A stretch of DNA of 64,000 bases, from IMG/VR virus record IMGVR_UViG_3300037067_012889, positions 96,001-160,000 of that record; one strand, 5' to 3'. The stretch comes from a virus. Taxonomy: Duplodnaviria > Caudoviricetes. Below are positions 7,149-64,000 of this stretch, piece by piece; position 1 is the first letter of the stretch; each line of letters begins with the position of its first letter. The notes beneath the pieces were generated by a model that searched no databases, was not told where the DNA came from, and saw nothing but the letters and a program-made list of their open reading frames with translations. The position numbers and the translations under genes were made by a program.

Positions 7149-7641
7149 GAAGAGATTGAGCGAGCGTGCCGTTCTATGGTACAAGGATCCAAAATGCTAC
7201 TGGTGTAGGAAGCCTACGAGGTTACTGCCAGAGATAACGGGAGGCAAAGCACCAGATGATATGGCAACGATCGACCATCTTTATAACAAGCTCGACAAGA
7301 ACCGCCAAGACATAGATCTTGGGATTATCAAGAAAAATCGAAGAGGCAAGACAGTAGTCAGGCGGCATGTACTAGCCTGTTATGCTTGCAATCAGAAACG
7401 CGGATTACTAGATTGCCAAGCTGCGAAATCTGGAATAGAATTCACTGTATCTGAAACATGTGCGACTAGACTACCGCAGAAAGAAATTGTAGAAGAGCCA
7501 ATCGATCCAGATATGACTCCGATTGAAGCTGATTGGTATTTAGACAGACATTACCGACTAAGAGATTGGAAAAGGCAAGTTGAAGAAAGTTTGGATGGCC
7601 TAGTGTCTGTCATGGGTTTGCCATTGAAAGGCGGCAAGTAA
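7141..7641 (+). CDS. HNH endonuclease
   Basis: CYWC...ATIDHL...VLACYACNQKRG. Confidence 0.8.
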   Translation: MIRKRLSERAVLWYKDPKCYWCRKPTRLLPEITGGKAPDDMATIDHLYNKLDKNRQDIDLGIIKKNRRGKTVVRRHVLACYACNQKRGLLDCQAAKSGIEFTVSETCATRLPQKEIVEEPIDPDMTPIEADWYLDRHYRLRDWKRQVEESLDGLVSVMGLPLKGGK

Positions 7642-8699
7642 TGCATTATGAAGAAGCTATCAAGCACTGCATTTTTCTGTACACGTCCGGATCGCATCAA
7701 TATGGTACAAATCGCCCTGATAGCGATGTTGATAGGCGTGGTGTATTCATCGCTCCACTTGAATGTGCATTCAACATATTCCAATCCAGCTTCGTCGGTT
7801 CTGGAAGCATCAAGAGCGATCTTCACATAGCACTCGATGCTATCGAATATGGCGACTCGATCAAAGCGAAGCATGCTATCGAATCGGCATTACAAACAGA
7901 TAGGGGCGATTTAACATTATCTGTCGAAACTGTGCACAAAACTGGTGAAGATACAGAGCTTCAAGAGTTAAGGAAATTCATGAAGCTGGCCTCAGATTGC
8001 AACCCGAACATCATCGAATTTCTCTATGTCGAACATCTCATCGACATTTGCAAACCAGAATGGGATATGATTAGAGAGCATAGAGATTTTTTCTTATCGC
8101 AAAAAGCTAGATGGACTTTTGCCGGATACGCAATCCAACAACTTAAGCGCATCAAAATTCATCGCGGCTATTTGTTGAATCCACCTACACATCAGCCGAC
8201 AAGGAAAGAATTCGGACTTCCAGAAAACAGCAAGATTCCAAAAGAGCACCAAAACGCCATTCTGTCTCTCCCAGACGAGTGGATTATTGAAGGCTCAAAA
8301 GATCAGGTTATCCAAGAAAAACGGTACGCATCGGCATTGCAAGCGTGGAATGCATATCATAAATGGGATAAGGAGCGCAATCCTGCTCGAAAAGAATTAG
8401 AGAGAAAATACGGTTATGACGTTAAGCACAGTATGCATCTCGTCAGACTGTGCAGGATGGCCGAGGAGATTATCAGAGATCAAAAAGTTCTGGTTAAAAG
8501 ACCAGATGCTGAAGAATTGCGTGGCATCTTGAGGGGCGAGTGGAAATATGAAGAGATTGAAGCTGTCGCCGACAACTTAGATGCAAAACTTGACGCCTTC
8601 TGTAAAACCTCAACACTTAGGAAAGTGCCGGACAGGAAGCGAATTGCCGCTTTATATCAAACAATCTGCGAATTTCGATATGGGATAAAACTGCCGTGA
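7641..8699 (+). CDS. RlaP/YcgL-like (T4 NrdC.11-like) Pol-beta nucleotidyltransferase
   Basis: GSHQYGTNRPDSDVDRRGVF, NPNIIEFL, GYAIQQL, YGYDVKHSMHLVRL. Confidence 0.85.
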   Translation: MHYEEAIKHCIFLYTSGSHQYGTNRPDSDVDRRGVFIAPLECAFNIFQSSFVGSGSIKSDLHIALDAIEYGDSIKAKHAIESALQTDRGDLTLSVETVHKTGEDTELQELRKFMKLASDCNPNIIEFLYVEHLIDICKPEWDMIREHRDFFLSQKARWTFAGYAIQQLKRIKIHRGYLLNPPTHQPTRKEFGLPENSKIPKEHQNAILSLPDEWIIEGSKDQVIQEKRYASALQAWNAYHKWDKERNPARKELERKYGYDVKHSMHLVRLCRMAEEIIRDQKVLVKRPDAEELRGILRGEWKYEEIEAVADNLDAKLDAFCKTSTLRKVPDRKRIAALYQTICEFRYGIKLP

Positions 8700-15063: not shown

Positions 15064-15254
15064 TATCTATCGACCTTCTTTGGTGGCCCGATCATGTGAA
15101 ATGATTCTATTTTAACAAGCAAGTTATCAAAAGCTTGATCTCTTGCTTTTTCTGTTAAATACCAATGGAAATTTGTATCTGAATGCTGTATTCCGAAAGG
15201 CTTCTTCTTCACCGATTTTTTACGATGCCGTGGAACATCATCTTCTTCACACAT
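15063..15254 (-). CDS. Hypothetical protein
   Basis: WY.TEKARDQA motif, packed run. Confidence 0.55.
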   Translation of the reverse strand: MCEEDDVPRHRKKSVKKKPFGIQHSDTNFHWYLTEKARDQAFDNLLVKIESFHMIGPPKKVDR

Positions 15255-15756
15255 GACATATCCTTTTTAGAAACGCTGTCGTTCCGATTATATCGTCTAT
15301 ACCATAATCGTCAGACTTACAAAAGTCTTCTACAGCACGTACAACTGCTCTGGCTATTGTGCGCCTAAGCGTCCCCTTGGCAAAATCGTGCACAGCAAAC
15401 AACCCATTGGGCTTTATTAGCGTCGAACTTACTTCGAGATCGCGATGACATGAATTATATGAATGATCCCCATCAACAATAATTGCGTCGAATTTTGTAG
15501 ACACACCCAATTCGATTAAATCATCTACAGTGCCAGTGAGCAATCTCATGTTCGGTTTTCGATTCTCATACCATTTAAGCCCCGCACGTCTCCATAGTAA
15601 CGGATCAACACTATAGAAAGTGACGCCCGGCCGTGCCATGGCCCATAACGAAACAGTAACACCGTGAAATGTACCGATTTCTAAGACCTTACCAGTATTA
15701 GGTAATCTTTCTAGAATAGCTTCATATTCTTCGACAAGCATTAATGACTTACTCAT
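15247..15756 (-). CDS. Class I SAM-dependent methyltransferase (Methyltransf_24-like)
   Basis: VLEIGTFHG, YSVDP, FDAIIVDGDHSY, KPNGLFAVHDF. Confidence 0.85.
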   Translation of the reverse strand: MSKSLMLVEEYEAILERLPNTGKVLEIGTFHGVTVSLWAMARPGVTFYSVDPLLWRRAGLKWYENRKPNMRLLTGTVDDLIELGVSTKFDAIIVDGDHSYNSCHRDLEVSSTLIKPNGLFAVHDFAKGTLRRTIARAVVRAVEDFCKSDDYGIDDIIGTTAFLKRICHV

Positions 15757-15998: not shown

Positions 15999-16778
15999 AT
16001 GAAAAATGACAATTTAATCGAGTGCTCAATGTACAAATTGATAAATGCTAATTGCTTAGATTATTTGAAGTCATACCCAGATTTACAGTGGGATACGATT
16101 ATGGCCGATCCTCCGGACGGGATAGACCTAAAATATGACACATATTCAGATAAGATTACAAGCGATGATTATATGTCGATGATGCGCAAATGGTTAAGCA
16201 TTTTTGTCATGCGTGCTAAAACAGTATGGGTATCATATAATGCGATATGGACGTTCGAAATAGGCAAAATCGTAACTGATTTGGTTGGCTTAAGAGCGGG
16301 AGTGCTAGAAGCCAAACCGTGCGTACAAGCATTCACATTTGGCCAGCACAATCAAAATGATTTGGGCAACAACTTCAGACCATTGTTACGACTACGTTGG
16401 CATGATGCTCCGCTACGACCAGATAATATAAGAATTCCGTCGTGGCGTCTATTAAATGGAGACAAACGTGCCGATCCGCGTGGTAGAGTTCCTGGTGACG
16501 TGTTCCATTTTCCGCGTGTCACTGGCAATTCAAAACAGAGACGTAGATGGTGCCCCACACAACTCAATGAGGGTCTTGTTGAGCGATGTCTTAAGATGAC
16601 AACACCGGATGGGGGAACGGTTCTTGATCCGTTTTGTGGCACTGGAACTACATTAAGAGTATGTAAGGTTCTCGGATATTCATGCACGCTCATAGACGTA
16701 GAAACTTTGTATTGCGACGAAATCGCAAAAGAACATAATATAAAAATCGAATATCTGCATGAATCAGAAACCAAATAA
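15999..16778 (+). CDS. Beta-class N6A/N4C DNA methyltransferase with a variant DPPD motif IV
   Basis: MADPPD in the N-terminal half, VLDPFCGTGTT SAM motif in the C-terminal half. Confidence 0.8.
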   Translation: MKNDNLIECSMYKLINANCLDYLKSYPDLQWDTIMADPPDGIDLKYDTYSDKITSDDYMSMMRKWLSIFVMRAKTVWVSYNAIWTFEIGKIVTDLVGLRAGVLEAKPCVQAFTFGQHNQNDLGNNFRPLLRLRWHDAPLRPDNIRIPSWRLLNGDKRADPRGRVPGDVFHFPRVTGNSKQRRRWCPTQLNEGLVERCLKMTTPDGGTVLDPFCGTGTTLRVCKVLGYSCTLIDVETLYCDEIAKEHNIKIEYLHESETK

Positions 16779-17139
16779 ATGCCCGTATTGCGGGCAGGAT
16801 GTAGTTTGTAAGGATTCTTCCATCATCTATGGTAGATCTTATGGTATGGTGTGGATATGCTCTGGATGGCCGAAATGTGATGCGTATGTTGGTTGTAAAA
16901 AAGGCACGAGCCAACCACTAGGTAGACTGGCAAATCCGGAACTTAGATATTGGAAGAAGCATGCGCACGACACATTTGATAAGCTCTGGAATCACGGAAA
17001 GATGACACGATCAGACGCCTATACTTGGCTATCCAGAGAATTATCAATTCCACCAGCAAAATGCCATATCGGGATGTTCGATGTAGACCAGTGTAAAGCT
17101 GTTTGTAACGCTATAACCGAATTCAACAAACAATTTTGA
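16759..17139 (+). CDS. DUF3268-like zinc-finger protein
   Basis: CPYCG...IYGR...WIC...CDAYVGC..GT..PLG.LAN..LR...AH..FD.LW...HIGMFD. Confidence 0.85.
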   Translation: MNQKPNKCPYCGQDVVCKDSSIIYGRSYGMVWICSGWPKCDAYVGCKKGTSQPLGRLANPELRYWKKHAHDTFDKLWNHGKMTRSDAYTWLSRELSIPPAKCHIGMFDVDQCKAVCNAITEFNKQF

Positions 17140-17725: not shown

Positions 17726-17767
17726 AACTTCATCTCAATCGTGCCATAACAATAAAGGATTCAGGCT

Positions 17768-18556
17768 ATGCAGAGATCTATACTTAAAGATTCGTTGTGG
17801 CTCGTAACTTCCGGTGGCACAAAAGTGCCTATCGATACCGTCCGCGACATCACCAATATGAGCAAAGGCACATTCGGTTGTAAGATTATGACCGAAGCTC
17901 TAAAACGTGGCAATAGGGTCCATGGGTTGATAGCAACCGGTAGTAAGTCGCCCTTCGATTTCTGTATGAACTTCTGGCGACAAGAAGATGCAGAAATAGC
18001 GGCCATGATTGAAATGGGGGAAATGGCTAAATTCGCTCTCGAATATAGAAGATGCTATGTAGAGAACGAATACCGCAACTTCAATGACTATGAAAAGTCA
18101 TTAGCACAGATTATGGAGACTCGTGTTCCAGATGTAGTGATCTTGGCCGCAGCCGTCAGCGATTATGGAGTGAAGCCGATGGCTGGCAAGATTAGATCTG
18201 GTAGCGACATGACAATCGAGCTTAGGCCATTGCCAAAATTGATTTCACGTATCAAGGCTGCTCATCCGAATTGTTATCTTGTTGGATTCAAACTTCTTGT
18301 CAATTCTACCGACGAGGAGTTGGAAGCCGCAGTTCGACATAGTATAGAAACAAACCTTTGCGATCTTGTAGTCGGAAACGATCTTCGTGATATCAAAGCT
18401 GGTAAACATCGGCTGTTGCTTGGTAAAACGGATGGTAAATCGATAACGATTACATCACATTGTGCTGATCCGAAAGATCCGAGCTATTTGGCCGAAGTAG
18501 TCGTTGACACTATCACGGAGCAACAGCGGTGGCCCCTAAATACAACATCTTATTAG
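17768..18556 (+). CDS. coaB: Phosphopantothenate-cysteine ligase (monofunctional CoaB)
   Basis: VTSGGT.VPID.VR.ITNMSKGTFG, LAAAVSDY, GKIRSG, LVGFKL, VVGND. Confidence 0.85.
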   Translation: MQRSILKDSLWLVTSGGTKVPIDTVRDITNMSKGTFGCKIMTEALKRGNRVHGLIATGSKSPFDFCMNFWRQEDAEIAAMIEMGEMAKFALEYRRCYVENEYRNFNDYEKSLAQIMETRVPDVVILAAAVSDYGVKPMAGKIRSGSDMTIELRPLPKLISRIKAAHPNCYLVGFKLLVNSTDEELEAAVRHSIETNLCDLVVGNDLRDIKAGKHRLLLGKTDGKSITITSHCADPKDPSYLAEVVVDTITEQQRWPLNTTSY

Positions 18557-19725
18557 GTCTGACAGGTAGTGTTGCAACAAGGCTTGCACCAAAGCTGTTA
18601 AAATCTCTATCAGAACATGGTAACGTCAAGGTCATAATGACCGAAGCGGCAACACATTTCTGTACTCACGACCAATTAAGCGCGGTTATCCCATCAATTG
18701 AAGTATATCGCGACGACCACGAATGGTCGATTTGGGAAGGCAGTATCCGATTCAGAGAATATTGCAAAGCAGTGAAGCTAGAATCGGATGTTCCCGATGA
18801 GTTGATTCCGCATATCGATTTGCGGCGATGGGCTAGTGTATTTGTCATTGCCCCACTATCGGCAAATACGTTGGCTAAAGCGGCAAATGGATTGTGCGAT
18901 AATTTGTTGACTTCGACCCTGCGTGCCTGGGATACGAATCGCCCAATCATTCTCGCACCCGCAATGAACACATTGATGTGGGAGCATGCCGCAACACAGC
19001 ATCATTTAAGCCAATTTAACGTCTGGTATCAAAATGCACATGTAGTAAACCCTATTGCAAAAAAGCTGGCATGTAATCAAATCGGCATTGGTGCAATGGC
19101 TATGGTCGATGATATTGTACAGGCAATGCTTGACTCTCTACAATGGCGATTCCCGTTAATGAATAGCTGTGTCCAGGATTGGTATGGGCGTCCTTCAACG
19201 CCGAACAACTGTCCCGGAATTCCAATCGATGACCATCCTGGTGCATTTGGTGTCAAACGCAATCATGATATACATAGTGGTATAGATCTTTATTGCAGCA
19301 AAGACAGCTATGTGACACCTGTAGAGTCTGGTACTGTTGTTTGTATTGAACCATTCACAGGACCAAGCGATGATACACCATGGTGGAATGATACATCTTG
19401 CATTATGGTTGAGGGAGCGTCGGGTGTAGTTAATTATGGCGAACTCTCGCCATCGTCGAACATCAAACTTGGTATGACAGTGCGAGTTGGTGATGTTATT
19501 GGTAAAATAATACCAGTTTTACCAGAAGAGAAATTAAGATCTGATATACCGGGACACAGCACATCGATGCTACATATTGAATTATATAAGCATGGCGTAT
19601 ATTCGCCATCAAAAATTTGGCCACACAATGAAAATCCGCCTTGTAGCTTAATCGACCCAACGCCATATCTATTAGGCAATATCGACGGTCCTTCGAACAC
19701 TTTAAGTGTGCTATCAACTACTTAA
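18529..19725 (+). CDS. coaC: Hal3/PPCDC-type phosphopantothenoylcysteine decarboxylase fused to a C-terminal M23-like peptidase domain
   Basis: ILLGLTGSVA, HIDLRRWA, APLSANTLAK...GLCDNLLT, PAMNTLMW, KKLAC...GAMA; then in frame WRFPL...HSGIDLY...LHIELY...IDPTPYL. Confidence 0.85.
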   Translation: MAPKYNILLGLTGSVATRLAPKLLKSLSEHGNVKVIMTEAATHFCTHDQLSAVIPSIEVYRDDHEWSIWEGSIRFREYCKAVKLESDVPDELIPHIDLRRWASVFVIAPLSANTLAKAANGLCDNLLTSTLRAWDTNRPIILAPAMNTLMWEHAATQHHLSQFNVWYQNAHVVNPIAKKLACNQIGIGAMAMVDDIVQAMLDSLQWRFPLMNSCVQDWYGRPSTPNNCPGIPIDDHPGAFGVKRNHDIHSGIDLYCSKDSYVTPVESGTVVCIEPFTGPSDDTPWWNDTSCIMVEGASGVVNYGELSPSSNIKLGMTVRVGDVIGKIIPVLPEEKLRSDIPGHSTSMLHIELYKHGVYSPSKIWPHNENPPCSLIDPTPYLLGNIDGPSNTLSVLSTT

Positions 19726-19752: not shown

Positions 19753-20799
19753 ATGACTCTCACTACTAGTGAGTGGATTAATTTGTATCAATCTACGAGT
19801 AATTCAGATCGAATCAAGGCCGGTAAGGTCGTAGTTGGTATGTCGCCAGAACAGATCGCCGATATAAAAAAAGAACTTGAACATCGCAAAATCCCAATCA
19901 AAGGCAAGCTTGCTGCTATGATTAAGTTTCCAGAGCAAGCAAAGGCTACGAGCAACAACACATCGAAAGTCTTTTGGGGTGAAGACGAGTGGGATTTCTT
20001 AGTTTCAAAAGTTTCTGCTCTCGCTCTCAAAGAACCAACGACTGGTCTCGCTTGTTTAGCCGGTCGAATCATGGAGCAAATGCCTGTTCATCAAAGAAGA
20101 CCTACACACGCAGGTCTTGTATCTGATCTAAACAAGCGATTGATCGAATACAATCGAGAACATTGGCTCGAAGTAGAGCAAGAATTAAGAACAGCGAAGG
20201 ATGAACTTACACGACGAAAAGAAGCATTGTCGAGGGAAGAGGTGATCGCTTCTCTCACCGATGAAGAGATCGGGCAATTCACACAACGAATCATCGACAA
20301 TCTATCACCAGACGATCTGTGCTCTCAATTCTCAGAACAAACCGTTCTAGATTGTATATCTCAGGAAGCTGTCGTAGCACATGCGATTGCTAAATCTTTT
20401 GCCAGATTTGGAGAGCACACGAGAATACTTGAAGAAAATCTGACGATGCTTTCGCGTCTACTCTCAGAATTACCACAGGAGAAGATTCGGAGACAACTTC
20501 AAGAAAAGGCGGCTGCTCCTGCCAGATTACCGCAGGTAGCATTTGTCGGATTCAAAGCTGAACAAATCGCAATCGTGGCCGATTCGTTACGTGGGCGAAT
20601 TAGAATTGACGTGATCGACAAGAATCGCAGCAGATTCGACTCATCAGCAGAAATCATCATCATATGGACGAAATTTATATCTCACTCTTTTGAAGCGCAA
20701 GTAATCCAGAACATGAAGAAAGGTGCACGCCTAATTCGCTTCAGTGGCGGATTAGAAGCAGCATCTAGAGAAATCGATCGTGCCATTAGGATGGTATAA
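19753..20799 (+). CDS. Hypothetical protein with a C-terminal DUF2325-like domain
   Basis: VAFVG...[11 protein letters not shown]...GG, preceded by a coiled coil. Confidence 0.6.
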
Positions 20800-23700
20800 C
20801 CCAACTCAGCACGCCACTGACTACTCTTAATACGTAGTCTCCATCCAATGTCGGTGCGGCTGGGTAACCTGAAATTCCAGATGCACCAGCAGCACCAGCT
20901 GGACCAGTTGCACCACCAATGCCAGCTGGACCAGTTGCACCAGGATCTCCGCCACCCGGTCCCGTTGCACCAGTAGGTCCAACCGGGCCTGATGCTCCAC
21001 CGGTATCTCCCTGAGGCCCAGTAGCACCAGAAGCACCAATGCCAGTCGCACCGGTCAAACCAGTCGCACCGGTCAAACCGGTTGCACCGATACCGGTCGC
21101 ACCTAGCGGACCAGTAGAGCCGGTTGCACCAGTAAAGCCAATAACACCAGTTGATCCCGCTATTCCAGTAGAACCAGTAGAACCCTTGGTGCCAGATGCA
21201 CCAGTAACAGACGTTCCACTAGCACCAGCAATACCCGTGGAACCAGTAGAACCAGCAATACCTGTAGAACCAGTAGCACCAGTAGGCCCAGCGGGGCCAG
21301 ATGCACCGCCCGTATCTCCTTGAGGCCCAGTAGCACCAGATGCTCCTACACCAGTAGCACCAGCAGTACCAGTAGCACCGGCAATACCAGTAGCACCGAC
21401 CCCCGTAGCACCTATAGGGCCTGTAGGGCCTGTAGAACCAGTGGCACCAGCACTACCAGAAAGCCCAGTTGCTCCTGTTGCACCAGCCGGACCAGAAGGA
21501 CCAGAAGCACCGCCAGTATCTCCCTGAGGACCTTGTGGTCCAGTGGATCCAGTAGCACCAGTAGGACCAGAAGCACCACCTGTTGGTCCTTGTGCTCCGG
21601 TTGCACCAGAAGCACCCAATCCTGTAGCACCAGTGGCACCTCCATATCCCGTTATTCCAGTAGCACCAGTAGGACCTGTGTATCCAGTAGCACCAGAAGG
21701 ACCGGAAGCACCACCAGTTGGACCTTGTGCTCCTGATGCCCCAACCACGCCAGTGGAACCAGTAGCACCAGCAACCCCGGCACCGGTAGCACCACCTAAA
21801 CCAGAAGCACCAGTAGGTCCAACAACACCGGTGGAACCGGTGGCACCAGCAACCCCGGCACCTGTAGCACCGGTTAAACCAGTAGCACCATCAACACCGA
21901 TTGTGCCAGATGCACCGATTGGACCTGTTGAACCTGTAGCACCTGTTAAGCCAGTAGCACCAGTGGCACCTGTTAAACCGGTAGCACCATCGACACCGAT
22001 TGTACCGGACGCACCGATTGGACCTGTCGAACCAAGACCAGTGGCACCAGTGGCACCAGTTAAACCGACAGAGCCTGTGGCACCAGATGCACCGTCAATA
22101 CCAGCACCGGCAGGTCCGGTTGCACCAGTTGCACCAAGGCCAGTAGCACCAACGAGACCACTTGCGCCTTGAATGCCAGTAGAACCAGTTGCACCACTAA
22201 TACCCGTAGCACCAGTAAGACCAGCACCAGAAGCACCCTGTACGCCCGTTGCACCTTGAACACCAGTAGATCCAGTTGCACCAGAAGGACCAGAAGAACC
22301 ACCAGTTGGTCCTTGTGCTCCGGTCGAACCAGAAGCACCTTGAACACCCATTGGACCGGTCGCACCGACAGGACCACCAAATGGGCCAGATGCACCGGTT
22401 AAACCGGTAGATCCAGGTGCACCGGAAGCACCAATGCCACTTGCACCTTGAACGCCAGTTGCACCGATACCAGTAGCACCGGATGCCCCAAGACCAGTCG
22501 CACCGGTCAAACCAGTTGCGCCACCAGTGCCAGTAGCACCATCAAGCCCAGTGGCACCTACAGTACCAATACCAGTCGCACCAGTGGCACCTATCGGACC
22601 ACCAGCAGGCCCGGTGGCTCCGTCGATACCGGGTGTTCCGGTTGCACCAATCACACTTAAACCAGGTACACCGCTTGCGCCAGTCGGACCAACTGCACCA
22701 GTAGAGCCAGTGGCACCAATTGGACCGCCAGAAGGCCCTGTGGCACCAGTATATCCAGTAGCACCAGAAGCACCAATCCCTGTAGCACCGGCTATTCCAA
22801 GACCAGTTGCACCAGTTGCACCACCTACTCCAAAGCCAGTGGCACCAGTTGCACCTGCCTGACCAGTGGCACCAACAGGACCACCAGAAGGCCCAGTTGA
22901 CCCTTCTTGTCCAGCAGGACCTGTAGCACCTGTCAGACCAATACCGCTCGCACCTTGTACGCCGGTCGCACCAGAAGAACCAGCAGGACCAGATGCACCA
23001 GTAGGACCACCAGCAGGGCCAGATGCGCCTGTTTCACCTGTTGCACCAGAAGCGCCGGCTATACCTGTTGCACCAGATGCACCAAGACCGGTGGCACCAG
23101 TAGCACCGATAGGACCGCCCGCAGGACCAGTAGCACCAATCTGGCCTATACCCGTTGCACCTGTTGCTCCGGTTGGACCGCCACTTGGACCGGTGGCACC
23201 AGCTATACCAGTCGATCCTGTTGCACCTGTGAGTCCAGTACCTGTTGCTCCTCTGGGACCAGAAACACCAGTAGAACCAGTAGCACCAGACTCTCCGGTT
23301 GCACCTGTAGGTCCTCCTAAAGGACCAGTAGCACCGGTCAAGCCCGTAGAGCCAGTTGCACCGGGACCAGTTGCACCAATTGGACCGATGGGGCCAACAG
23401 AACCTTGAGCACCAGTGGAACCAGTAGCACCTGTTGGGCCACCACCGGGACCAGTTGCACCAGCAGGACCGGCCGCACCCGATGCCCCCGTAATGCCACT
23501 TGAAGTCCACGACAAATGCTTCAATCCATCTGTGACTAGGACTTGGCCAACCGTGCCATCGACATTAGGGAATTGCAAATTGCTAATAATAACATGCTTA
23601 CCGCTGCCCCATGCAGAAACCTCCAAATCAGTCCCGGTAACTGAATGAACAACAGATGTCTGCAAGCCATCGGTGCTACTATATGATAAACCAGCATTAT

Positions 23701-26700
23701 CAACAAGACGACCGTTCGTACCAGCAAATGGAATTCTGTTTGGTGTCAGCGCAACACCATCGTTCAAGACAAAACCTTTCCTGGCGTTATCTGTAGTGAT
23801 GGTGAAATAAATATCGTCGGTTGTAAATTCAAAAGCACCGGCTTCCGGAATAGCAAGAACAACACCACTAGCGAATTTTAGTAACGCCGTTCCTGGTGCT
23901 GCACTACCAGCCTTTATATGTAGTCTTGCTGTTGGATTATAGAGGCCGATACCAATAGCTTCGCCATTTATAGTGACATTTTCACTATTTCTATCACGTT
24001 CAATTAGATTATAAAAATTAGTTAAACGTTCTGCATCGTATGCAGGAACACCAGCGCTTTCAGTAAGAGTAACAGTGCCGAGCCATCTATATCCCTTATT
24101 ACTACCGGTAGTGGCGTAGACCGGAATACCGTCTAACGTAGCTAGGCCATCAGAATCGACTTGCGACCAATAACCAGCAGCCAAATCATCGGCAAACACA
24201 CCAGCTATGTGATCTACTATACATGCATAAACGTTAACGTTCGAAACACGGGTACCAACACCATACGATGTCCCAGTAACCCATTCTTCTATGCGACTTG
24301 TCGATTCTGGTGAATACTCTACAAACTTAATTTCACCGATCATGCAATACCAGAAAATCGTGCTATACCACAAAGCCTGATATGGCATCGTGCATGCCGT
24401 GGCATCTATTCTATAATAACGATATGCTACAGTGTTGTTAAATGTGAAATAACTCGACCAAATCCCAACACCGGCTGGTGGATCTATACCTACTTTCGTA
24501 TCGAGAACCGACCAGTTCACATTATCATTTGATCCAGATAATGTGAAATCTCGCGGTAGCGAAGGATAATACATCTTCGCTTTAAACGCATATTTATTTA
24601 TAACCTTCTCATTGTGCTCACCGAAATCGTATGTAATCCATACGGGAGATTCAAAGGGATCTCCTGGGGTATAGGTATTGCCACCGATTCGTACGCCCCA
24701 CCCAGGATTGCTTGGCGTGAGGTCTTGGTTAAATGCATACCAACCATACAAATAGATATCAAGTGTTTCCCCATATATAACACCGGTATCGCTGGTAATG
24801 ACGACATTCGGAATAGGTGTCGTGAACGACGTCATTGCGGTAGTACATGTGGTAGTTCCAGGGTTGTACTTACCATCTGATGGTATAAACTTCCAAGGTG
24901 CAAATTCTATATCAAAAGATGTCGGTGTACTGTAAGATGCAAATACGTCGTAAGTTCGGTATGAAATGAGCGGAGCCGCGTCCATGTCGTTGACAATATT
25001 CGACACCGATGGTGCCACGGCCGTATTAACGATATCCCATGTAGATGTGGAATTGTTATAAAGCCGAATCTGGTTAGACTCGACAAAATTCCACACTAGA
25101 TTAGTAGCACTAATGACCTTTAAGTTACCATCGACAACGTCCGTTGGTGCCACACCCGCACCGTTATTTGCCCAAGATAAAGTACCAGTTCCATCTGTGG
25201 CGAGTACCTGCCCAGATAAACCATTTGTTCTTGGAAAATCAAGAGAACCAAGGAAAATATTGCCAATGCTACCAGTATCGATTACGACATCGCCAGTATC
25301 TTTCTTTTTCTCGACAGTGTTGTAGAAATTACCAATCAAGGCGTTACTAAAATTAGCAACGCCGTTAACTGAGTATAACGAGACTGTACCAAGCCATCTA
25401 TAGCCCTTGTAGAGGCCAGAGTTAGCATAAATCGGAACACCATCGAAAATACCCAGTCCATCTGGATCTGATAATATCCACCTACCACTAGCCAAATCAA
25501 CATCAAAATCGTTTGATGTATGAGCAGAAATACATGCATATTTGCTGCTCTCGTGCAATACCCGATCGCCGATTTTGTAGCCAGTTGCTGTAATCCAATA
25601 TCCAGCTCTTGTGTTGGCCGACACTCCACGAACTAACTTTACAGCCCCAAGCTCTACATAGTATTGTGCTGTGCCTGCATCAGCTGGACAGTTAGTTACT
25701 AATCTATAATAACGATAAGCTGTCCCATTGCTAAATGTGTAATATGCGCTCCATGTCTGATCACCAGGGCCTGTTATACCCGTTCTAGTATCAAGCAGTA
25801 TAAAAGTCGTTCCATTATGCGATCCATATAAACTGAACGCTGTTGGAAACGCAATATTGCTGTATGCTTGCAAAGCATACTTATTTATAATCGTTGGTAC
25901 ATTAAAATCGTATTCTATCCATGCAGATGTGGCCAGAGGTGTTGGGACCGACGACCAATATTTAGTGATATCACCACTAAATGCATTCCATGCACCGTAC
26001 AATTCACTGCTCGCACTTGCAACTTGCGGTGCTGGTATGCTGTTCGCAGTCATTGTAGTTGTGCATGTAGTAGTACCAGGATTAGCACTACCATTAATCG
26101 ACGCAACAACCCAAGGCGCAAACGTGAGATCGAATGACGTAAGTGAATCATATGTAGCGAAAACGTCATATACTAGATCATATGTTAAAGCATCACCACC
26201 CATATCGGTGGCTGTATTCGACGCTGTTGGTTCTGTCGCAACATCGACTATAGCCCATGCTACAGAGGTTGCATTATATAGTCGTATATGGTTTGATGAA
26301 TAAAAGCTCCAAACCAATGTGCTTCCAGCACTCGATCGCAATCGGCCACCAAGAGTATCGCTACTTTCTACTCCTGGCGTTATGACACTATTGACGTATT
26401 GGATTGTCGCAACGTCATATGGCAATGCTGGTGCAGTAGCGTGATTGTTTATGAATTGATTACCAGTACCAAGATCAGTAGCTGGTATCCTGAAAGTATT
26501 ATGGTTGATCGTATTGTCTGTAGAGGTGGCGTCTAAAGAAAACGATGAGCCAACCAGACGTTCAACAAGTGTATTGTTCTCTATGGTATTAGAATCGGAA
26601 TCAACGAGCTTAACAGAGTCTAGATTGTCGATAATCCTATTATTGTAAATCGAATTGGTATCGGAGTTTTGGACATAAAATCCAGTATTGTTGGATTGGG

Positions 26701-27343
26701 ACAAACTCTCGGTAACAGTGCATTTTGTAGCATATACCAGAGAGTATCCAGTACTCACATTCAATGAGCTATTATTCTCTTCACAATTATTTCCTGTAGA
26801 ATTAAATATCCCGAGACCATCTGCATTATTTGTAGTAACATTATCATGTAAAATGTTATTATCAGATGAATCTCGTAACAAAATACCAAATTCAGTATTG
26901 TTATCAGCGGTATTGTTGACTACGATATTATTACTACTGGCTGCAAGCTCAATGCCATTCTTGTTACCAGTACAAACACATAAATCGATTTTATAGGTAT
27001 CAACACTACCCGAATTATCAAGTAAGATACCTGATTGATTAGGGGCCGTCGCTGTTACTTTGAATCTGCTAAAAGATCCAGCAGCAGCCGTTATATGGAC
27101 AGCTGGTGTCACACCATTACCAGTCAATGTCGTTGTGTCGCTGTCATCAGTATAGATATCGAGAACTTTATTAATTACTAGGTTCTCAGTATAGGCACCT
27201 GGCCTTACATAGATCACATCTTTTTCAGCTGATGCATCAATAGCGGCTTGGATTGTTGTATATTCTGAATCAACAGCACCAACGGTTGTGGTATAATCCG
27301 CTGCAGCTTTTGTGACTATCCTATCAGTATTTGTTAACATCAT
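20786..27343 (-). CDS. Giant virion fibre/adhesin (~2185 aa): right-handed beta-helix, 2x discoidin(F5/8C) plus CBM-like modules, ~880-aa collagen-like stalk
   Basis: [21 protein letters not shown]-like start and GI.L..S.NN.I..N repeats; WI.YDF...INKY...P..F.L.GS.D...W..LD...AYRYYR twice; Gly-X-Y (mostly GAT); ATG 27343 overlaps the upstream TGA. Confidence 0.85.
20867..23497 (-). repeat. Collagen-like Gly-X-Y repeat (GAT/GAS/GPT/GST) with periodic interruptions
   Basis: Direct translation; internal duplications such as [26 protein letters not shown] twice. Confidence 0.95.
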
Positions 27344-27624
27344 TCTCCCTCTGCCGTTATATGAACGACAACGTCGTTGGCTGCACACTCACTGAAAAGA
27401 AGATCGCTAAGATTTGCCAGTGTTACTTTATAAACTTTAATAACGACCGACGTAGAAGTCAGACTAATGATTTTGTGAGACAATGGATAAATACTATCTG
27501 CTAGACCACCGTCCTTTAGCTGAATTCCTACACATACTACAGGCGGTTGGCTGAACGGAACATCGAAGTTCCAGACAGCACCACCAACAGCATAATTTAT
27601 CCTGGCGTCAAGTATTGTATTCAT
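27340..27624 (-). CDS. Small beta-sandwich (H-lectin-like) virion protein, homologous to an internal domain of 36614..40891
   Basis: F..PP.V.VGI.LK.G..D.IY.LS.KII..T....VIKVYK......FSECA..DV.VH. Confidence 0.75.
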
Positions 27625-58665: not shown

Positions 58666-60084
58666 ATGGCTGGTACAGCACGCGTATCGCGACAAATAGT
58701 TGAAGTTCTAACGACAAGCAATCTTTTGCCGCCATATACGTATGGAACGATTAAAGCAACAAGGCAAATGATAGATGTCCTGTTGTTAGATGGCACTGCT
58801 CTACCTCCATACACATATGCTACGATATACGTAACAAGACAAATTGTTGAAGTTTTGACTTGGCAAGACTATTATAATGCCAGTGCATCTAATACTTTAA
58901 GTATAACACAGACACTTAATGCTTTCGCGAATACAACGCCACCAACATTTTCAAAAGCACTCATATCTAAATCGAATGCAATAGAACAAATGCCAAACGG
59001 TGACATAATAAACCACGGAGATTTTCCAATATGGACTACAAATAGCTCATCTTGGACGCAAACAAGGCAAGCCTTTTGTGCAAGAGTCGAAGCAAACGCA
59101 GCATGTTTTAATCAAGATACCATTACATTTGGAAGTCTCGGGACTACTACGAAATGCTTGGGAAGTGTTTTGGCTCCAAATGGATGCATTTATGGTCCAC
59201 CACGTACAAGCACATCAATTCTAAAAATCGACACCACAACAGATGCAATTACAACTTTTGGCAGTTTTGGTTCTGGTGCAGATAAATGGGGTGGTGCCGT
59301 CTTAGCTCCCAATGGATACATATATTGCATACCAAATACGATTACGACGATTTTAAAAATTGATCCGGCAACAGATACTACAACCACATTTTCAAGTGGT
59401 TGCACTGGCTCTGCAGATTTTAGCGGCGGCGTTGTTGCACCGAATGGATGCATCTATTGTGCACCATGGAGCTATACTGCCGTCTTAAAAATTGATCCAA
59501 CAACAGATACAGTGACAACATTTGGAGCAGCGGCCGTTGGAGCCGGTACTGTTAAATGGCAATCTGCCGTTCTTGCCCCAAATGGTATGATTTATTGCAT
59601 GGCTGTAAATAGTACAGCAATCTTGAAAATCGATCCAACAACAGATACGGCTACAACATTTGGTAGCGTTGGTGCTGGGACTTATAAATGGGCTGGCGGC
59701 ATATTAGCGCCGAATGGTATGATCTATGCAATACCACAAGACGCAACAACTATCTTGAAAATCGATCCAACAACAGACACAGCAACAACATTTGGCAGTC
59801 TGTCCGGCACAGCCAAATGGGTCGGCGGCGTCTTAGCTCCAAATGGTATGATTTATGGCATACCGTGGTCTAGTACTACAATATTAAAAATCGATCCAAC
59901 AACAGACATAGCAACAACGTTTGGAAGCTTATCTGGCTCTGCCAAATGGGCTGGCGGCACAGTAGCGCCAAATGGCATGATTTATGGCATACCGTGGTCT
60001 AGTGCTACGGTCTTAAAATTTGGTGGTATGTCGGACGATGCGCCACTTGATTACTGTTTGTCAAGATATTTCAATAGATATTAG
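58666..60084 (+). CDS. Seven-repeat beta-propeller protein with three N-terminal RQxxEVL repeats
   Basis: 7 x W.GGVLAPNG.IY..P...ILKIDP.TDT.TTFGS. Confidence 0.8.
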   Translation: MAGTARVSRQIVEVLTTSNLLPPYTYGTIKATRQMIDVLLLDGTALPPYTYATIYVTRQIVEVLTWQDYYNASASNTLSITQTLNAFANTTPPTFSKALISKSNAIEQMPNGDIINHGDFPIWTTNSSSWTQTRQAFCARVEANAACFNQDTITFGSLGTTTKCLGSVLAPNGCIYGPPRTSTSILKIDTTTDAITTFGSFGSGADKWGGAVLAPNGYIYCIPNTITTILKIDPATDTTTTFSSGCTGSADFSGGVVAPNGCIYCAPWSYTAVLKIDPTTDTVTTFGAAAVGAGTVKWQSAVLAPNGMIYCMAVNSTAILKIDPTTDTATTFGSVGAGTYKWAGGILAPNGMIYAIPQDATTILKIDPTTDTATTFGSLSGTAKWVGGVLAPNGMIYGIPWSSTTILKIDPTTDIATTFGSLSGSAKWAGGTVAPNGMIYGIPWSSATVLKFGGMSDDAPLDYCLSRYFNRY

Positions 60085-60108
60085 AGATTGATTGCATTTG
60101 GAGATTGC

Positions 60109-61254
60109 ATGGCTTACCAAAAACCACTGATTAAAAACACAAATTCGATTGGATCTCTGCCCAGTGGAGATTTATTAGCCCACGGCGATTTTCCCTTATG
60201 GTCTGCGAACAAATTGTCGTGGGAGCAAACACAATTAGCATTATGCACGAGGGCAAGTTTAGATCGTGCTTGTTCGCAGTTCACCACAACAATATTTGGT
60301 AGTTTTTCTGGTACGTCGAAATGGACGTGCGGTGTCTTAGCTCCTAACGGTTATATTTATAGTTGTCCATGTTACAGTGGCACAGTTTTAAAAATCGATC
60401 CGACAACAGATACTGGTACAACATTTGGTAGTCTTGGTGACACAACTACATTTAGATGGAGCGGTTGTGTCTTGGCACCAAATGGATACATCTACGGAGT
60501 TCCGAGTGCAAGCACTGAAATAGTAAAAATAGATCCTACGACAGATACAGTGACAACATTTGGAGCCCTGTCGTCTGATGCCGATAAGTGGTTTGGTTGC
60601 GTTTTGTCATCGACAGGTATAATTTACGGCATACCACAAACTGGCACCTCGATCTTAAGAATCGATCCTGCGACAGATACAGCTACCACATTCGGAAGCC
60701 TTGCAGTAGCTAATAACAAATGGTTAGGTGGTGTACTAGCTCCTAATGGATGTATTTATGGCGTTCCATATGCTAGTACGTCAGTTCTAAAAATCGATCC
60801 TAGTACAGATACAGCAACAACATTCGGAAGCTTTACAGGAGCAACAAAATGGCAGGGTGGCGTGTTAGCTCCTAATGGACGCATCTATTGTATTCCGACA
60901 GGTATCGGAACAATTTTGAAAATCGATCCAGCAACTGATACCGGCACGACATTTGGAAGCATATCCGGTACAGCACCGATGAATGTAGGTGGAGTCTTAG
61001 GTGCAGATGGTCTGATTTATGGGGTTCCTTTTAGTGGTACTGCACTTCTAAAAATAGATCCAACGATTGACGTGGCTGCTACTACTACATTTAGCAACTT
61101 AACTGGTTCTAGTAAATGGTATGGCGGAGTTTTGGCCACCAATGGATGTATATATTGCGTACCACACACAGGCACGACTGTTCTAAAGATTGGTACTGCA
61201 CTAGACGACGTACCGCTCAATCGGTGCCTGTCACGACATTTCAACAAACCTTAA
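60109..61254 (+). CDS. Seven-repeat beta-propeller protein (likely start MAYQKPLI)
   Basis: 7 repeats; GGAG RBS before ATG 60109. Confidence 0.8.
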   Translation: MAYQKPLIKNTNSIGSLPSGDLLAHGDFPLWSANKLSWEQTQLALCTRASLDRACSQFTTTIFGSFSGTSKWTCGVLAPNGYIYSCPCYSGTVLKIDPTTDTGTTFGSLGDTTTFRWSGCVLAPNGYIYGVPSASTEIVKIDPTTDTVTTFGALSSDADKWFGCVLSSTGIIYGIPQTGTSILRIDPATDTATTFGSLAVANNKWLGGVLAPNGCIYGVPYASTSVLKIDPSTDTATTFGSFTGATKWQGGVLAPNGRIYCIPTGIGTILKIDPATDTGTTFGSISGTAPMNVGGVLGADGLIYGVPFSGTALLKIDPTIDVAATTTFSNLTGSSKWYGGVLATNGCIYCVPHTGTTVLKIGTALDDVPLNRCLSRHFNKP

Positions 61255-61264
61255 TCATAGCACA

Positions 61265-61795
61265 ATGAATAACGAGACTTACATAAAACCGGCAGGTAGA
61301 TTCGATGTTGAACACTGGCGTAGAGGAAAGCTTCTTACTATACACCATGCACCAAATGGTGTTTCAAATGAAGGTAAGACTGGAATATTAAATGCCAACT
61401 TCTACAATGGCACTAATATTGGATATTGGTGGGTTGGTCTAATTGACAATACTGGTTTTGTGGCACTGGCCTCTACGGATTCTTATCAAAGCATTAATCA
61501 ACCAGGTAACGGATGGTCTGAATTTACAGGATATGTGGATGGCATAAATACTAGCACAAGGCCAACATGGAATAATAACGCAGCTTCGGCACAAACGATA
61601 ACAAATACAGTTAAAACGTTATTCACGATTACCGTCGCAGGCACAGTTGTTGGTGCATTCGTCGTTGGTGGCCCAACATCACAAATCAAAGGTGATTATT
61701 CTTCTGGTAATGTACTATGGGCGGATGCATTATTCCCGGTCACTGACGTATTACCGACAGATCAGTTAAAAATTACGTACACAATATTACTGTAA
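61265..61795 (+). CDS. Virion protein, paralogue B of 55078..55617
   Basis: Colinear motif identity. Confidence 0.75.
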   Translation: MNNETYIKPAGRFDVEHWRRGKLLTIHHAPNGVSNEGKTGILNANFYNGTNIGYWWVGLIDNTGFVALASTDSYQSINQPGNGWSEFTGYVDGINTSTRPTWNNNAASAQTITNTVKTLFTITVAGTVVGAFVVGGPTSQIKGDYSSGNVLWADALFPVTDVLPTDQLKITYTILL

Positions 61796-61806
61796 ATGAG
61801 ATCAAT

Positions 61807-64000
61807 ATGACATATCAAAATCCATTAGTGTCAAAATCGGGCAGGATGCAAGTACTGTCAAACACAGAGATAATAAATCACGGAGACTTTCCACCATGGG
61901 CGACAAATCCGTATGGCCAGACGGCCGTAGCATACACTTCATCGATTTACTATAAAAAACTGATAACGGTCGATCACACTAAAATCGGCAGTACAGATAA
62001 TTTACGAATAGTAATCCCAATTGTAAATGACGCTGACTTGGGAGCACACGCTCAGCTAAATGGCTATGACATATTTCTCGTAGATGCAAATGGAAATTAT
62101 ATGCATCACGACATAATGAGTTACAGTGTTGTATCAGGGCTTGCGAATGGCAACATTGCAACATGTCTAGTCTCACCAAGCACATCAGTCGATACAACTT
62201 TCTATTTGTGTTACGGAATCGCTCAACAATTTTCACTTGCACATCCAAGCGGCGTATGGAACACATACCGATGGGTCTCGCATCTTGAAGAGGCATATTA
62301 TCCATATAAAGATGTCGCAAAAGGTTACAACACTGTAGGCGGAACATATCCAACGCAAGGGACTGGAAAAATCGGGAACGGCCAGACATTCAACGGCTCA
62401 TCTATGTATCTCGATTTTGGTTTACTTGTTGGATGTGCGATAGGAGATTATACTGCGTCTGCCTGGATTAAGCCAGCTGGGCTGGGAGCCGAACGACGTT
62501 TCATGTCTAATATGGGATATGGCAATTATAATGGCTCATTCGATTTCTTGTTAGATGGTTCGAATAAATTAACAATATTACATCAAAGCGGTTCAGCACA
62601 ATCGGTTTATAGGAGCACATCTACTAGCCTCTTCACAAACGGCGTATGGGCGAAGGTTGAAGTATCATGGGCGTCTCCGACTGGCGTACCAACATTATAT
62701 GTAAACGGTTCACCAGTTGCTGGTGCTCTAGATAGTGGCGTTGGCATGGTAACACCAAGATCGATACCAAGTTATGATATGCGAATCGGTTCTACTGGCG
62801 GTGGCACGATAACGACTTGGTGGAGTGGTATGGTAGACGAAGTCAGATTCGCCGACTACATCAAACCAGCAGCTCTAATTGCAACGGAATATACTTTCGA
62901 CACACAGACTTGCGTTACGGTGGGAGCAGAGACTAGTTCATCGTATCTACCACCAGCATATAGCAGCTGGCCACAAACAAGACAAGCTCTAACTTCACGT
63001 ATAGGGACCAATTTAGTTGCTTCCCAGCACTACATCTCATCTACTTTTACTAACGGTAGCCTCACATTAGACGCAAATAAATGGTCTGGTGGCGTCCTAG
63101 CTCCGAGTGGGTCGATTTATTGCGTGCCATATACTGCTACTACAATATTAAAAATCGATCCGACATTAGATACGGCGATTACTTTTGGAAGTCTCGCAGC
63201 AGATGCCACCAAATGGATTGGTGGCGTATTGGCTCCTAACGGATGCATCTATTGCATACCATATACTGCCACTACAATATTGAAAATAGATCCAACATCG
63301 GACACTACGACAACGTTCGGCAGTTTAGTCGGTGATACAAAATGGGTTGGTGGTGTTGTTGGTATGAATGGCATGATTTATGGAGTTCCACATAGTAGTA
63401 CGTCGATACTTAAAATAGACCCAACAACAGACACGGTTACAACATTCGGTGCTGTAGGGGCCGATACCTTAAAATGGCAAGGTGGAGTATTGGCCCCGAA
63501 CGGATGCATCTATTGTGCACCTTTTAATAATACTTATGCTCTAAAAATCGATCCATCAGCAGATACTTACACATTACTATTCGGTAGCCTATCAGGTACT
63601 AGCAAATGGATCGGTGCTGTTCTGGCTCCAAATGGATGTATTTATTGCATACCGTGCTCAAGTACAACCGTTCTAAAAGTCAATCCGTTTTCAGACACAT
63701 TTACAACATTTGGAAGCCTATCTGGTTCTCTAAAATGGAGTGGTGGCGTCTTGGCCCCGGACGGTATGATATATGGGATACCACAAAATTCTACTACAAT
63801 TCTAAAAATAGATCCAACAACAGACGTGGCCACAACTTTTGGCAGTGTTGGTTCTGCATCATCGAGCTGGCTTGGAGGTATCTTGGCTCAAAGCGGAGTA
63901 ATATATGGTGTTCCGCAGAGTTATAATTATGTTTTGAAAATCGGCACACCAGCTATTGATGTTACAACTGATTTCCCACTATCACGCCATTTCAACAAAT
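61807..64000 (+). CDS. DUF2341-like + LamG + seven-repeat beta-propeller protein, absent from the ORF track because its stop lies past the window edge
   Basis: Translated by hand: MTYQNPLV...HGDFPPW, YKKLITVDHTKI...NGYDIF...FYLCYG, GKIGNG..FNG...SAWIK...LYVNG...G.VDEVR, 7 propeller repeats, ends LSRHFNK. Confidence 0.85.
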   Translation, partial: MTYQNPLVSKSGRMQVLSNTEIINHGDFPPWATNPYGQTAVAYTSSIYYKKLITVDHTKIGSTDNLRIVIPIVNDADLGAHAQLNGYDIFLVDANGNYMHHDIMSYSVVSGLANGNIATCLVSPSTSVDTTFYLCYGIAQQFSLAHPSGVWNTYRWVSHLEEAYYPYKDVAKGYNTVGGTYPTQGTGKIGNGQTFNGSSMYLDFGLLVGCAIGDYTASAWIKPAGLGAERRFMSNMGYGNYNGSFDFLLDGSNKLTILHQSGSAQSVYRSTSTSLFTNGVWAKVEVSWASPTGVPTLYVNGSPVAGALDSGVGMVTPRSIPSYDMRIGSTGGGTITTWWSGMVDEVRFADYIKPAALIATEYTFDTQTCVTVGAETSSSYLPPAYSSWPQTRQALTSRIGTNLVASQHYISSTFTNGSLTLDANKWSGGVLAPSGSIYCVPYTATTILKIDPTLDTAITFGSLAADATKWIGGVLAPNGCIYCIPYTATTILKIDPTSDTTTTFGSLVGDTKWVGGVVGMNGMIYGVPHSSTSILKIDPTTDTVTTFGAVGADTLKWQGGVLAPNGCIYCAPFNNTYALKIDPSADTYTLLFGSLSGTSKWIGAVLAPNGCIYCIPCSSTTVLKVNPFSDTFTTFGSLSGSLKWSGGVLAPDGMIYGIPQNSTTILKIDPTTDVATTFGSVGSASSSWLGGILAQSGVIYGVPQSYNYVLKIGTPAIDVTTDFPLSRHFNK

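Follow-up and report, generated by a model that had tools for sequence, protein, structure and literature searches.

Coenzyme A (CoA) synthesis passes through two middle steps, in which CoaB ligates cysteine to 4'-phosphopantothenate and CoaC decarboxylates the product to 4'-phosphopantetheine. In the bifunctional CoaBC (Dfp) of bacteria, e.g., that of M. smegmatis (6tgv), the CoaC part is N-terminal and another domain is attached to its C-terminus, whereas plant and human phosphopantothenoylcysteine (PPC) decarboxylases, such as AtHAL3a (1mvn/1e20) and human PPCDC (1qzu), are stand-alone enzymes, and a monofunctional CoaB is represented by the Streptococcus type (2gk4). The CoaBC step is feedback-inhibited in bacteria by CoA and acyl-CoAs. 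Mycobacterial CoaBC is inhibited by CoA thioesters at physiological levels (PMC7794376). M23 peptidases (LytM, lysostaphin, zoocin A, StM23) employ an HxxxD motif and the last His of HxH as zinc ligands, together with two catalytic histidines (the His of YxHL and the first His of HxH). Degenerate LytM domains of the EnvC/NlpD type (EnvC, 4bh5; also SpoIIQ, 3tuf) have lost peptidase catalytic residues and typically lose the zinc ligands as well, while LECT2 (5b0h) keeps its zinc site and is still non-catalytic. Here, we analysed a locus of a 364-kb jumbo phage which combines elements of these systems, within a 64,000-nucleotide stretch (positions 96,001 to 160,000 of IMG/VR record IMGVR_UViG_3300037067_012889), hereafter the window. 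Positions are those of the window, and the features discussed below are as follows:

17768..18556, plus strand, coaB, predicted monofunctional phosphopantothenate-cysteine ligase (PPCS), 262 aa, ATG start
18529..19725, plus strand, whole fusion ORF, 398 aa, GTG start, translationally coupled to coaB
18529..19140, plus strand, CoaC domain (residues 1-204), predicted FMN-dependent PPC decarboxylase of the plant/human type
18811..18834, plus strand, HIDLRRWA, motif with the catalytic His95 of CoaC
18958..18981, plus strand, PAMNTLMW, the PxMNxxMW motif of PPC decarboxylases
19060..19101, plus strand, KKLACNQIGIGAMA, substrate clamp with Cys182
19141..19722, plus strand, domain of predicted M23/LytM fold (residues 205-398), YGE/MLH subfamily
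19273..19287, plus strand, HSGID, HxxxD zinc-ligand motif (H249, D253)
19435..19446, plus strand, YGEL in place of YxHL, the catalytic His being replaced by Glu305
19567..19575, plus strand, MLH in place of HxH, the first His being replaced by Met347 and the zinc ligand His349 kept

CoaB and the CoaC–M23-like fusion

The original prediction was that coaB and a Hal3-type coaC are separate genes, and that the latter continues in frame into an atypical M23 domain. This observation is confirmed. Both ORFs are present; coaB is preceded by an AAAGGA ribosome binding site (17754-17759), and the fusion starts with a GTG with GGAG 7 nt upstream and overlaps the coaB stop by 28 nt. Scans for promoters and terminators gave results at chance level. 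The motifs DDHEW (62-66), HIDLRRWA (95-102), RAWD (132-135), PAMNTLMW (144-151), KKLAC (178-182), HSGID (249-253), YGEL (303-306) and MLH (347-349) are all in place. The in-frame junction is conserved in hundreds of full-length homologues (97-99% query coverage), and stand-alone M23-like proteins start 1-10 residues before the conserved W206-x-FP motif; a frameshift or assembly artefact is therefore excluded for practical purposes. In total we found about 1,840 homologues, mostly of 340-430 aa and most with both domains, on contigs up to 622 kb.

The CoaB protein matches the DFP domain (PF04127, 6.5e-25, 88.5 bits against a cut-off of 22). NCBIfam models PRK06732 and coaB_strep match at 5e-32 and 1e-28, however, both remain far below the equivalog cut-offs (111 against 265 bits), so this is a divergent phage clade. 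The best PDB relative is 2gk4 (1.4e-18 over 208 residues), with which the motifs SGGT...VR.ITN.S.G, AAVSDY, GKI and FKLL are shared. In an alignment of 29 phage CoaBs, residues T14, G16, D23, V25, R26, N30, G34, D132, Y133, K141, F174-K175-L176 and N204 are invariant. The catalytic residues of E. coli CoaB are N210 and K289, with the AAVxDY nucleotide motif, and the alignment to 1u7u places N30 at the N210 position.

The N-terminal part of the fusion matches the Flavoprotein family of Rossmann-type fold (PF02441, residues 6-203, 8.2e-34, 117 bits against a cut-off of 22.7), in keeping with a PPC decarboxylase of the HFCD flavoproteins (EC 4.1.1.36). An AF2 model of the whole protein reached pLDDT 89.2 and pTM 0.86, with an insertion at residues 70-92 modelled at low confidence. 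By Foldseek the best structural matches are 1mvn and 1e20 (AtHAL3a, 39% identity, TM 0.90/0.84) and 1qzu (human PPCDC, 38%), while the identity to bacterial CoaBC is only 26%. The FMN-binding motif is shared with the plant and human enzymes, which lack the roughly 190-aa C-terminal domain. In contrast to bacterial CoaBC, CoaB is here a separate upstream gene, and the position after CoaC is taken by the M23-like domain. A CoaC trimer or dodecamer core would be expected for the fusion oligomer. The catalytic His (His90 of AtHAL3a, His75 of E. coli Dfp) corresponds to H95, invariant in 25 of 25 aligned sequences; N147, M150, K178, L180, C182, G186 and G188 are also invariant. The PxMNxxMW motif and the clamp with the reducing Cys distinguish PPCDC from EpiD-type enzymes, and both are present. 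Another possibility was a RiPP-like pathway, with a peptidyl-cysteine decarboxylase of the EpiD/MrsD type and the M23 domain as a leader or processing peptidase. M23 domains are indeed peptidases, HFCD enzymes include peptide decarboxylases, and these (SpaF, TvaF, MrsD, EpiD) do appear lower in the fold list, however, only at 19-27% identity, against 38-39% for PPCDC; moreover, the constant partner is a CoaB with all catalytic residues, and no conserved small precursor ORF was found in the neighbourhoods. This reading is very unlikely and was rejected.

An M23-like subfamily with replaced catalytic histidines

The C-terminal domain is only weakly recognized by Pfam (PF01551, residues 248-356, 5.3e-5), its 23.8 bits lying below the gathering score of 28.7, although some relatives pass (e.g., 40.4 bits). 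PHROGs has no dedicated family for it and gave a single weak hit, to an endolysin family. The predicted fold is nevertheless confident: an AF2 model of the domain alone had pLDDT 92.3, Foldseek probability was 1.00, and VIA-align gave Z of 12-13.6 (rmsd 2.6-2.9 over 120-133 residues) to StM23, EnvC LytM, LECT2 and lysostaphin (13.6, 13.3 and 12.8 to 9gy1, 4bh5 and 4lxc). A profile search against the PDB gave 6.5e-6 to zoocin A.

The domain belongs to a large subfamily of 2,233 clusters at 50% identity, nearly all on giant-phage-like contigs. Its signature HxGxD...YGE...MLH is present in 259 of 267 members: HxGxD in 267, YGE in 262 and MLH in 264, with HLH in two. In the fusion alignment Y303, G304 and E305 are invariant, and H249, D253, MLH and its H349 are invariant both there and in the domain alignment. 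Thus, as compared with LytM, lysostaphin, zoocin A and StM23, FGxxR...HxGxD and the final zinc-ligand His are kept, the two catalytic histidines are replaced, and there are extra conserved loops (FTG...PWW, RxDIPGH). Since these replacements are family-wide, the domain is a repurposed subfamily and not an ordinary lysin. The view that a peptidoglycan-degrading lysin merely happens to be fused to CoaC could draw on the weak Pfam and PHROG hits and on the bioinformatic annotation of one relative as a murein hydrolase. However, the domain is fused to a cytoplasmic flavoprotein, with no signal peptide or membrane segment, stand-alone forms begin at the domain boundary, the relative annotated as a murein hydrolase was not detected in virions, and the linkage described below is to CoA genes rather than lysis or tail genes and persists across deep divergence and three fusion orders. 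We consider this view highly improbable and rejected it.

It remains possible, though less likely than an enzymatic role, that the domain is non-catalytic, with a structural zinc site as in LECT2, and serves as a binding module, as EnvC/NlpD/SpoIIQ LytM domains do. It would then recruit, regulate or sense a host CoA-pathway enzyme, ACP, or CoA/acyl-CoA as an allosteric ligand, and CoaB/CoaC would simply boost CoA synthesis. Both histidines that activate water in LytM/lysostaphin are missing, and the closest folds include EnvC (Z 13.3), LECT2 (Z 13.2) and SpoIIQ; none of these three proteins is linked to a metabolic enzyme. The domain also occurs alone in phages without CoaB/CoaC, and CoaB/CoaC occur without it. 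On the other hand, the H/D/H ligands typically lost by degenerate LytM adaptors are retained here in 267 of 267 members, and many additional polar residues (among them H236, R244, R337, D339, H343 and E351) are near-invariant across 26-50% identical sequences, which is more typical of an active site; in addition, the same slot is filled in some loci by a TANGO2-type hydrolase with its nucleophile intact.

Linkage to CoaB/CoaC and its interpretation

In order to test whether the domain is linked to the CoA genes, or whether, as the alternative set beforehand, homologues are always unlinked and the domain an ordinary lysin, we examined its gene neighbourhoods. It is fused or adjacent to CoaB/CoaC in 28 of 42 M23-centred loci and 31 of 43 CoaB-centred viral loci, although the CoaBs of these loci are only 26-48% identical; the alternative thus fails. 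Four arrangements were found: CoaC-M23 fusions, in the hundreds; an M23-CoaC fusion (protein P0166); an M23-CoaC-CoaB triple fusion (protein P0241, on a phage-like 63-kb contig), which is rare and keeps the bacterial C-B order; and separate M23-coaB-coaC genes in many loci. Clustering of neighbours around 44 + 15 loci revealed no further conserved partner gene. The coupling is frequent but not obligatory, as five near-complete phages of 390-580 kb have the domain but no CoaC, and two complete giant phages have coaB and coaC without it. A quick tree of 151 M23 domains was poorly resolved; fused and stand-alone forms intermix, and well-supported branches force at least 4 changes of architecture, however, many short stand-alone or other entries may be gene fragments, so we draw no count of fusion events from it.

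The phage genome has no match to PF03309 (PanK-III), PF01467 (CoaD), PF01121 (CoaE), PF00550 (ACP) or PF05742 (TANGO2), in a search that did not cover type I/II PanK or PPTase, so only the CoaBC step is supplied. Our preferred explanation, held with about even confidence, is a translationally coupled two-gene operon in which CoaB and CoaC would act on host 4'-phosphopantothenate as a feedback-independent bypass of the host CoaBC step, while the C-terminal domain would be a cytoplasmic, zinc-binding derivative of the M23/LytM fold and not a cell-wall lysin. As it is joined to CoaC in three fusion orders or sits beside coaB-coaC, we infer that it acts on a metabolite of this pathway, most likely by hydrolysis of an amide (or thioester) of a 4'-phosphopantothenoyl- or pantetheine-type compound made by CoaC. 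The genomic linkage is demonstrated by our data, whereas the CoaB and CoaC reactions are deduced from motifs and fold, and zinc binding and the chemistry of the M23-like domain are likewise inferred. The loss of both catalytic histidines, the example of LECT2, the presence of coaB and coaC without the domain in two complete giant phages, and the occurrence of the domain without CoaC, which means that it can work without phage CoaB/CoaC, speak against this view, and hydrolysing the pathway's own product looks futile unless the released fragment is the goal. The interpretation accompanying the original prediction, i.e., an M23 domain repurposed to act on a pantetheine-like amide or a peptide, or a pair making a non-CoA cysteamine product, is therefore only partly supported: the repurposing and the Hal3/PPCDC-like nature of CoaC hold, while an amidase role and a cysteamine product remain hypotheses.

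CoA-pathway genes in phages are usually regarded as generic auxiliary metabolic genes. Here, a very large branch of the M23 fold, undescribed so far, is tied to CoaB/CoaC by repeated, permuted gene fusions, and that kind of link is strong evidence of shared function. Literature searches for the fusion, for phage coaBC and for CoA-depleting defence found nothing pertinent. If the domain is an enzyme, it represents a new chemistry for the M23 fold, acting in the cytoplasm on a cofactor intermediate, and giant phages would rewire the CoA/pantetheine node of their hosts and not merely boost it.

TANGO2-type hydrolases and stand-alone members

In three loci a TANGO2-type Cys-Ntn amidohydrolase, with Cys2 and the NRDE motif, takes the slot upstream of coaB instead of the M23 domain, its nucleophile being intact. 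A bacterial lineage, Neomarinimicrobiota, shows the same TANGO2-coaBC adjacency. Pfam scans of genes next to coaB in loci lacking both hydrolases found nothing relevant, only an R2K ATP-grasp at one locus. The alternation also bears on a doubtful alternative, a carrier cycle that does not feed CoA, in which cysteine would be loaded on 4'-phosphopantothenate, decarboxylated and released as cysteamine by the M23-like or TANGO2-like amidase, regenerating phosphopantothenate and giving the phage a free aminothiol for redox control or as a building block. In favour of it, only the two middle steps and a hydrolase-type domain are encoded, in the fusions this domain is always fused to CoaC, the step whose product it would cleave, two unrelated amidohydrolase folds alternate in one slot, and stand-alone forms could run the cycle with host CoaBC. 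However, no cysteamine-using gene was found conserved nearby, CoaB and CoaC exist alone in some complete phages, the cycle costs one CTP per turn, and biochemical evidence is lacking.

A further reading, which we consider unlikely but not excluded, is that the YGE/MLH domain and the phage TANGO2-like proteins are analogous (phospho)pantetheine-directed amidohydrolases which, together with CoaB and CoaC, form either such a cysteamine-releasing cycle or a CoA-salvage loop. If true, this would be the first genomic-context clue to the long-sought substrate class of TANGO2, the human disease gene whose defects are rescued by vitamin B5. The alternation at the same position offers a microbial test system for this human protein of unknown function.

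Stand-alone members, 42-47% identical, occur in cultured jumbo phages, namely Pseudomonas phage PA5oct (gp441, QCG76309) and Stenotrophomonas phages RAS14 and CM1, so genetics is feasible. They are neither fused to nor located next to CoaB/CoaC and are annotated only as peptidase M23 or hypothetical; gp441, the relative annotated as a murein hydrolase, was not detected in virions (PMC7318152) and lies among small early-type genes.

The coaB gene and the fused coaC gene

We first examined the genes themselves and their context. The virus record of 363,885 bp, of which bases 96001-160000 were analysed, is rated 100% complete by CheckV, and its gene content is typical of a giant phage. Two overlapping open reading frames were found in the window:

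17768-18556: a 262-aa ORF with a good RBS, matching the CoaB domain
18529-19725: a 398-aa ORF with a GTG start and GGAG 7 nt upstream, which overlaps the coaB stop by 28 nt

The first product matches PF04127, the CoaB domain, at 6.5e-25, and its closest solved relative is the Streptococcus-type monofunctional CoaB 2gk4 (1.4e-18). In the second, residues 6-203 match PF02441 Flavoprotein (8.2e-34), while residues 248-356 match PF01551 Peptidase_M23 only weakly (5.3e-5, below the gathering score). The original prediction had described a separate coaB gene followed by a Hal3-type coaC fused in frame to an atypical M23 domain, relying on the motifs DDHEW, HIDLRRWA, RAWD and KKLAC in CoaC and HSGID, YGEL and MLH in the M23 part. 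Each of these motifs is present where it was claimed to be, and the observation is confirmed.

In order to assess whether CoaB and CoaC are genuine, we employed structure prediction and alignments of diverse homologues. An AlphaFold2 model of the fusion is confident (pLDDT 89, pTM 0.86). Its N-terminal domain superposes best on the Arabidopsis HAL3a PPC decarboxylase (39% identity, TM 0.90) and on human PPCDC (38%), whereas bacterial CoaBC reaches 26% and peptide decarboxylases such as EpiD/MrsD reach 19-27%; a RiPP-like pathway was considered as a reading of the gene pair, but we regard it as very unlikely. The catalytic His95, the PxMNxxMW motif and the clamp Cys182 are invariant in 25 diverse homologues. 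Cys182 is the residue that separates PPC decarboxylases from EpiD-type enzymes. In 29 phage CoaBs, which are only 25-48% identical to the window protein, the Asn and Lys that align with E. coli N210 and K289 are invariant, as is the AAVSDY motif. We therefore accept both proteins as working enzymes of the CoA pathway, although their activity is inferred from sequence and predicted structure alone. The databases label the fusion protein only as PPC decarboxylase, and we found no publication describing the fusion or the subfamily to which its C-terminal domain belongs.

The M23-like domain

Modelled alone, the C-terminal domain is also predicted with confidence (pLDDT 92). The model is clearly an M23/LytM fold, with Z of 13.6-12 to StM23, the EnvC LytM domain, LECT2 and lysostaphin, while unrelated folds start at Z 5.6. 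A profile search gave E 6.5e-6 to zoocin A. We then searched 1.84 billion representatives with a profile, which returned 2,233 clusters, 479 of them below 1e-30. Among the 267 members collected, all 267 have HxGxD and 259 have the exact combination HxGxD + YGE + MLH. Thus, the three residues inferred to be zinc ligands are kept, and the two histidines that activate water in LytM/lysostaphin are replaced by Glu and Met throughout. Two of the 267 members keep a canonical HLH (HxH) together with YGE, and they may be intermediates between classical M23 peptidases and this subfamily. Further polar residues are near-invariant, namely H236, R244, R337, D339, H343 and E351. A non-catalytic binding domain remains a possible, though less favoured, reading.

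Stand-alone members of the subfamily begin 1-10 residues before the conserved W-x-F-P motif that follows CoaC in the fusion. This places the junction at about residue 205 and shows that there is no export signal. An ordinary lysin is the least likely of the readings considered.

Linkage of the domain to CoaB and CoaC

The fusion has about 1,840 homologues, mostly of 340-430 aa with both domains, on contigs up to 622 kb. In loci retrieved with the fusion as query, three arrangements recur: coaB followed by coaC::M23; M23, coaB and coaC as three adjacent genes; and coaB-coaC without the domain. Two further fusion orders exist. Protein P0166 is M23-CoaC, while protein P0241 (locus L094:8001-9698) is a 565-aa M23-like + CoaC + CoaB triple fusion on a 63-kb phage-like contig, where its neighbours are a seryl-tRNA synthetase, an RNA ligase, a 2OG-Fe(II) oxygenase and a guanylate kinase.

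When loci were centred on the M23-like domain, 28 of 42 viral loci had CoaB and/or CoaC fused or within 3 kb, and when they were centred on CoaB, 31 of 43 had the domain. In genomes of several hundred genes this linkage is far beyond chance, and it persists across CoaB lineages only about 30% identical to each other. However, the linkage has its limits. Five near-complete 390-580 kb phages carry a stand-alone copy and no CoaC, and cultured PA5oct-like and Stenotrophomonas jumbo phages do the same, with the gene among small early-type genes; PA5oct gp441 was not found in virions by mass spectrometry (PMC7318152). Conversely, two complete giant phages have coaB+coaC without the domain. The domain is therefore a frequent but separable partner. 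No other neighbour is conserved in these loci, and this includes the three genes that lie just upstream of coaB in the window, none of which is conserved next to coaB in other phages:

15247-15756 (-): a Methyltransf_24 gene
15999-16778 (+): an N6/N4 DNA methylase
16759-17139 (+): a DUF3268 zinc-finger protein

TANGO2-family genes beside coaB and the inferred role of the domain

In four giant-phage loci that lack the M23-like gene, the gene directly upstream of coaB encodes a TANGO2-family protein (PF05742, 1.3e-22), a Cys-Ntn hydrolase which keeps the N-terminal Met-Cys and the NRDE motif. The genes of this family found directly upstream of coaB or coaBC are:

L017:3016-3741, L022:4468-5322, L031:3624-4334 and L043:4529-5290: the four giant-phage loci, upstream of coaB
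L108:6372-8293 and L104:236-1923: two cellular loci of a Neomarinimicrobiota lineage, upstream of coaBC

The two cellular loci were the only such cases among 25 cellular TANGO2 loci, and since both come from one lineage (85% nucleotide identity), they count as one independent case. Human TANGO2 is now regarded as a probable Cys-Ntn amidohydrolase of unknown substrate; it binds CoA and acyl-CoA, and its deficiency responds to vitamin B5 (PMC13044924; PMC11179719). The adjacency may be a genomic-context clue to the substrate of TANGO2. In one phage that lacks both the M23-like and the TANGO2-like genes, an R2K-clade ATP-grasp gene (L042:3771-4550) lies two genes upstream of coaB.

The sample is small, but the finding of two unrelated hydrolase folds alternating beside CoaB/CoaC is our main reason to favour a catalytic role on a pantetheine-type compound. 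As to why only the middle steps are encoded, the phage has no match to CoaD, CoaE, type III PanK, ACP or TANGO2. Mycobacterial CoaBC is strongly inhibited by CoA and acyl-CoAs at physiological levels (PMC7794376), and a phage-encoded, differently built CoaB/CoaC pair could therefore bypass host feedback. This explains CoaB+CoaC on their own, but not the third domain. The reading that we favour, with moderate confidence, is a feedback-independent CoaB/CoaC step plus a cytoplasmic zinc hydrolase acting on a pantetheine-type metabolite, while a cysteamine-releasing carrier cycle seems doubtful. The interpretation offered in the original prediction is partly supported: that the M23 domain has been repurposed and works with CoaB/CoaC is backed by the comparative evidence. 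However, the enzymatic activities, zinc binding and the specific chemistry of the domain remain inference.

Elsewhere in the window, three further regions drew our attention:

7641-8699 (+): a 352-aa protein with an RlaP-type (RNA-repair pathway) nucleotidyltransferase domain (PF10127, 4.8e-12)
20786-27388 (-): a 2,200-aa protein, probably a fibre
58666-63999 (+): a run of lectin-like proteins with DUF6923/Tachylectin/Laminin_G_3 domains

The 2,200-aa protein has an N-terminal beta-helix-like part, two repeated lectin-like modules and a roughly 1,000-residue collagen-like Gly-X-Y tract rich in GATG/GPTG, which raises local GC to 0.52-0.55. A related long ORF occurs in L045, another of the loci compared.
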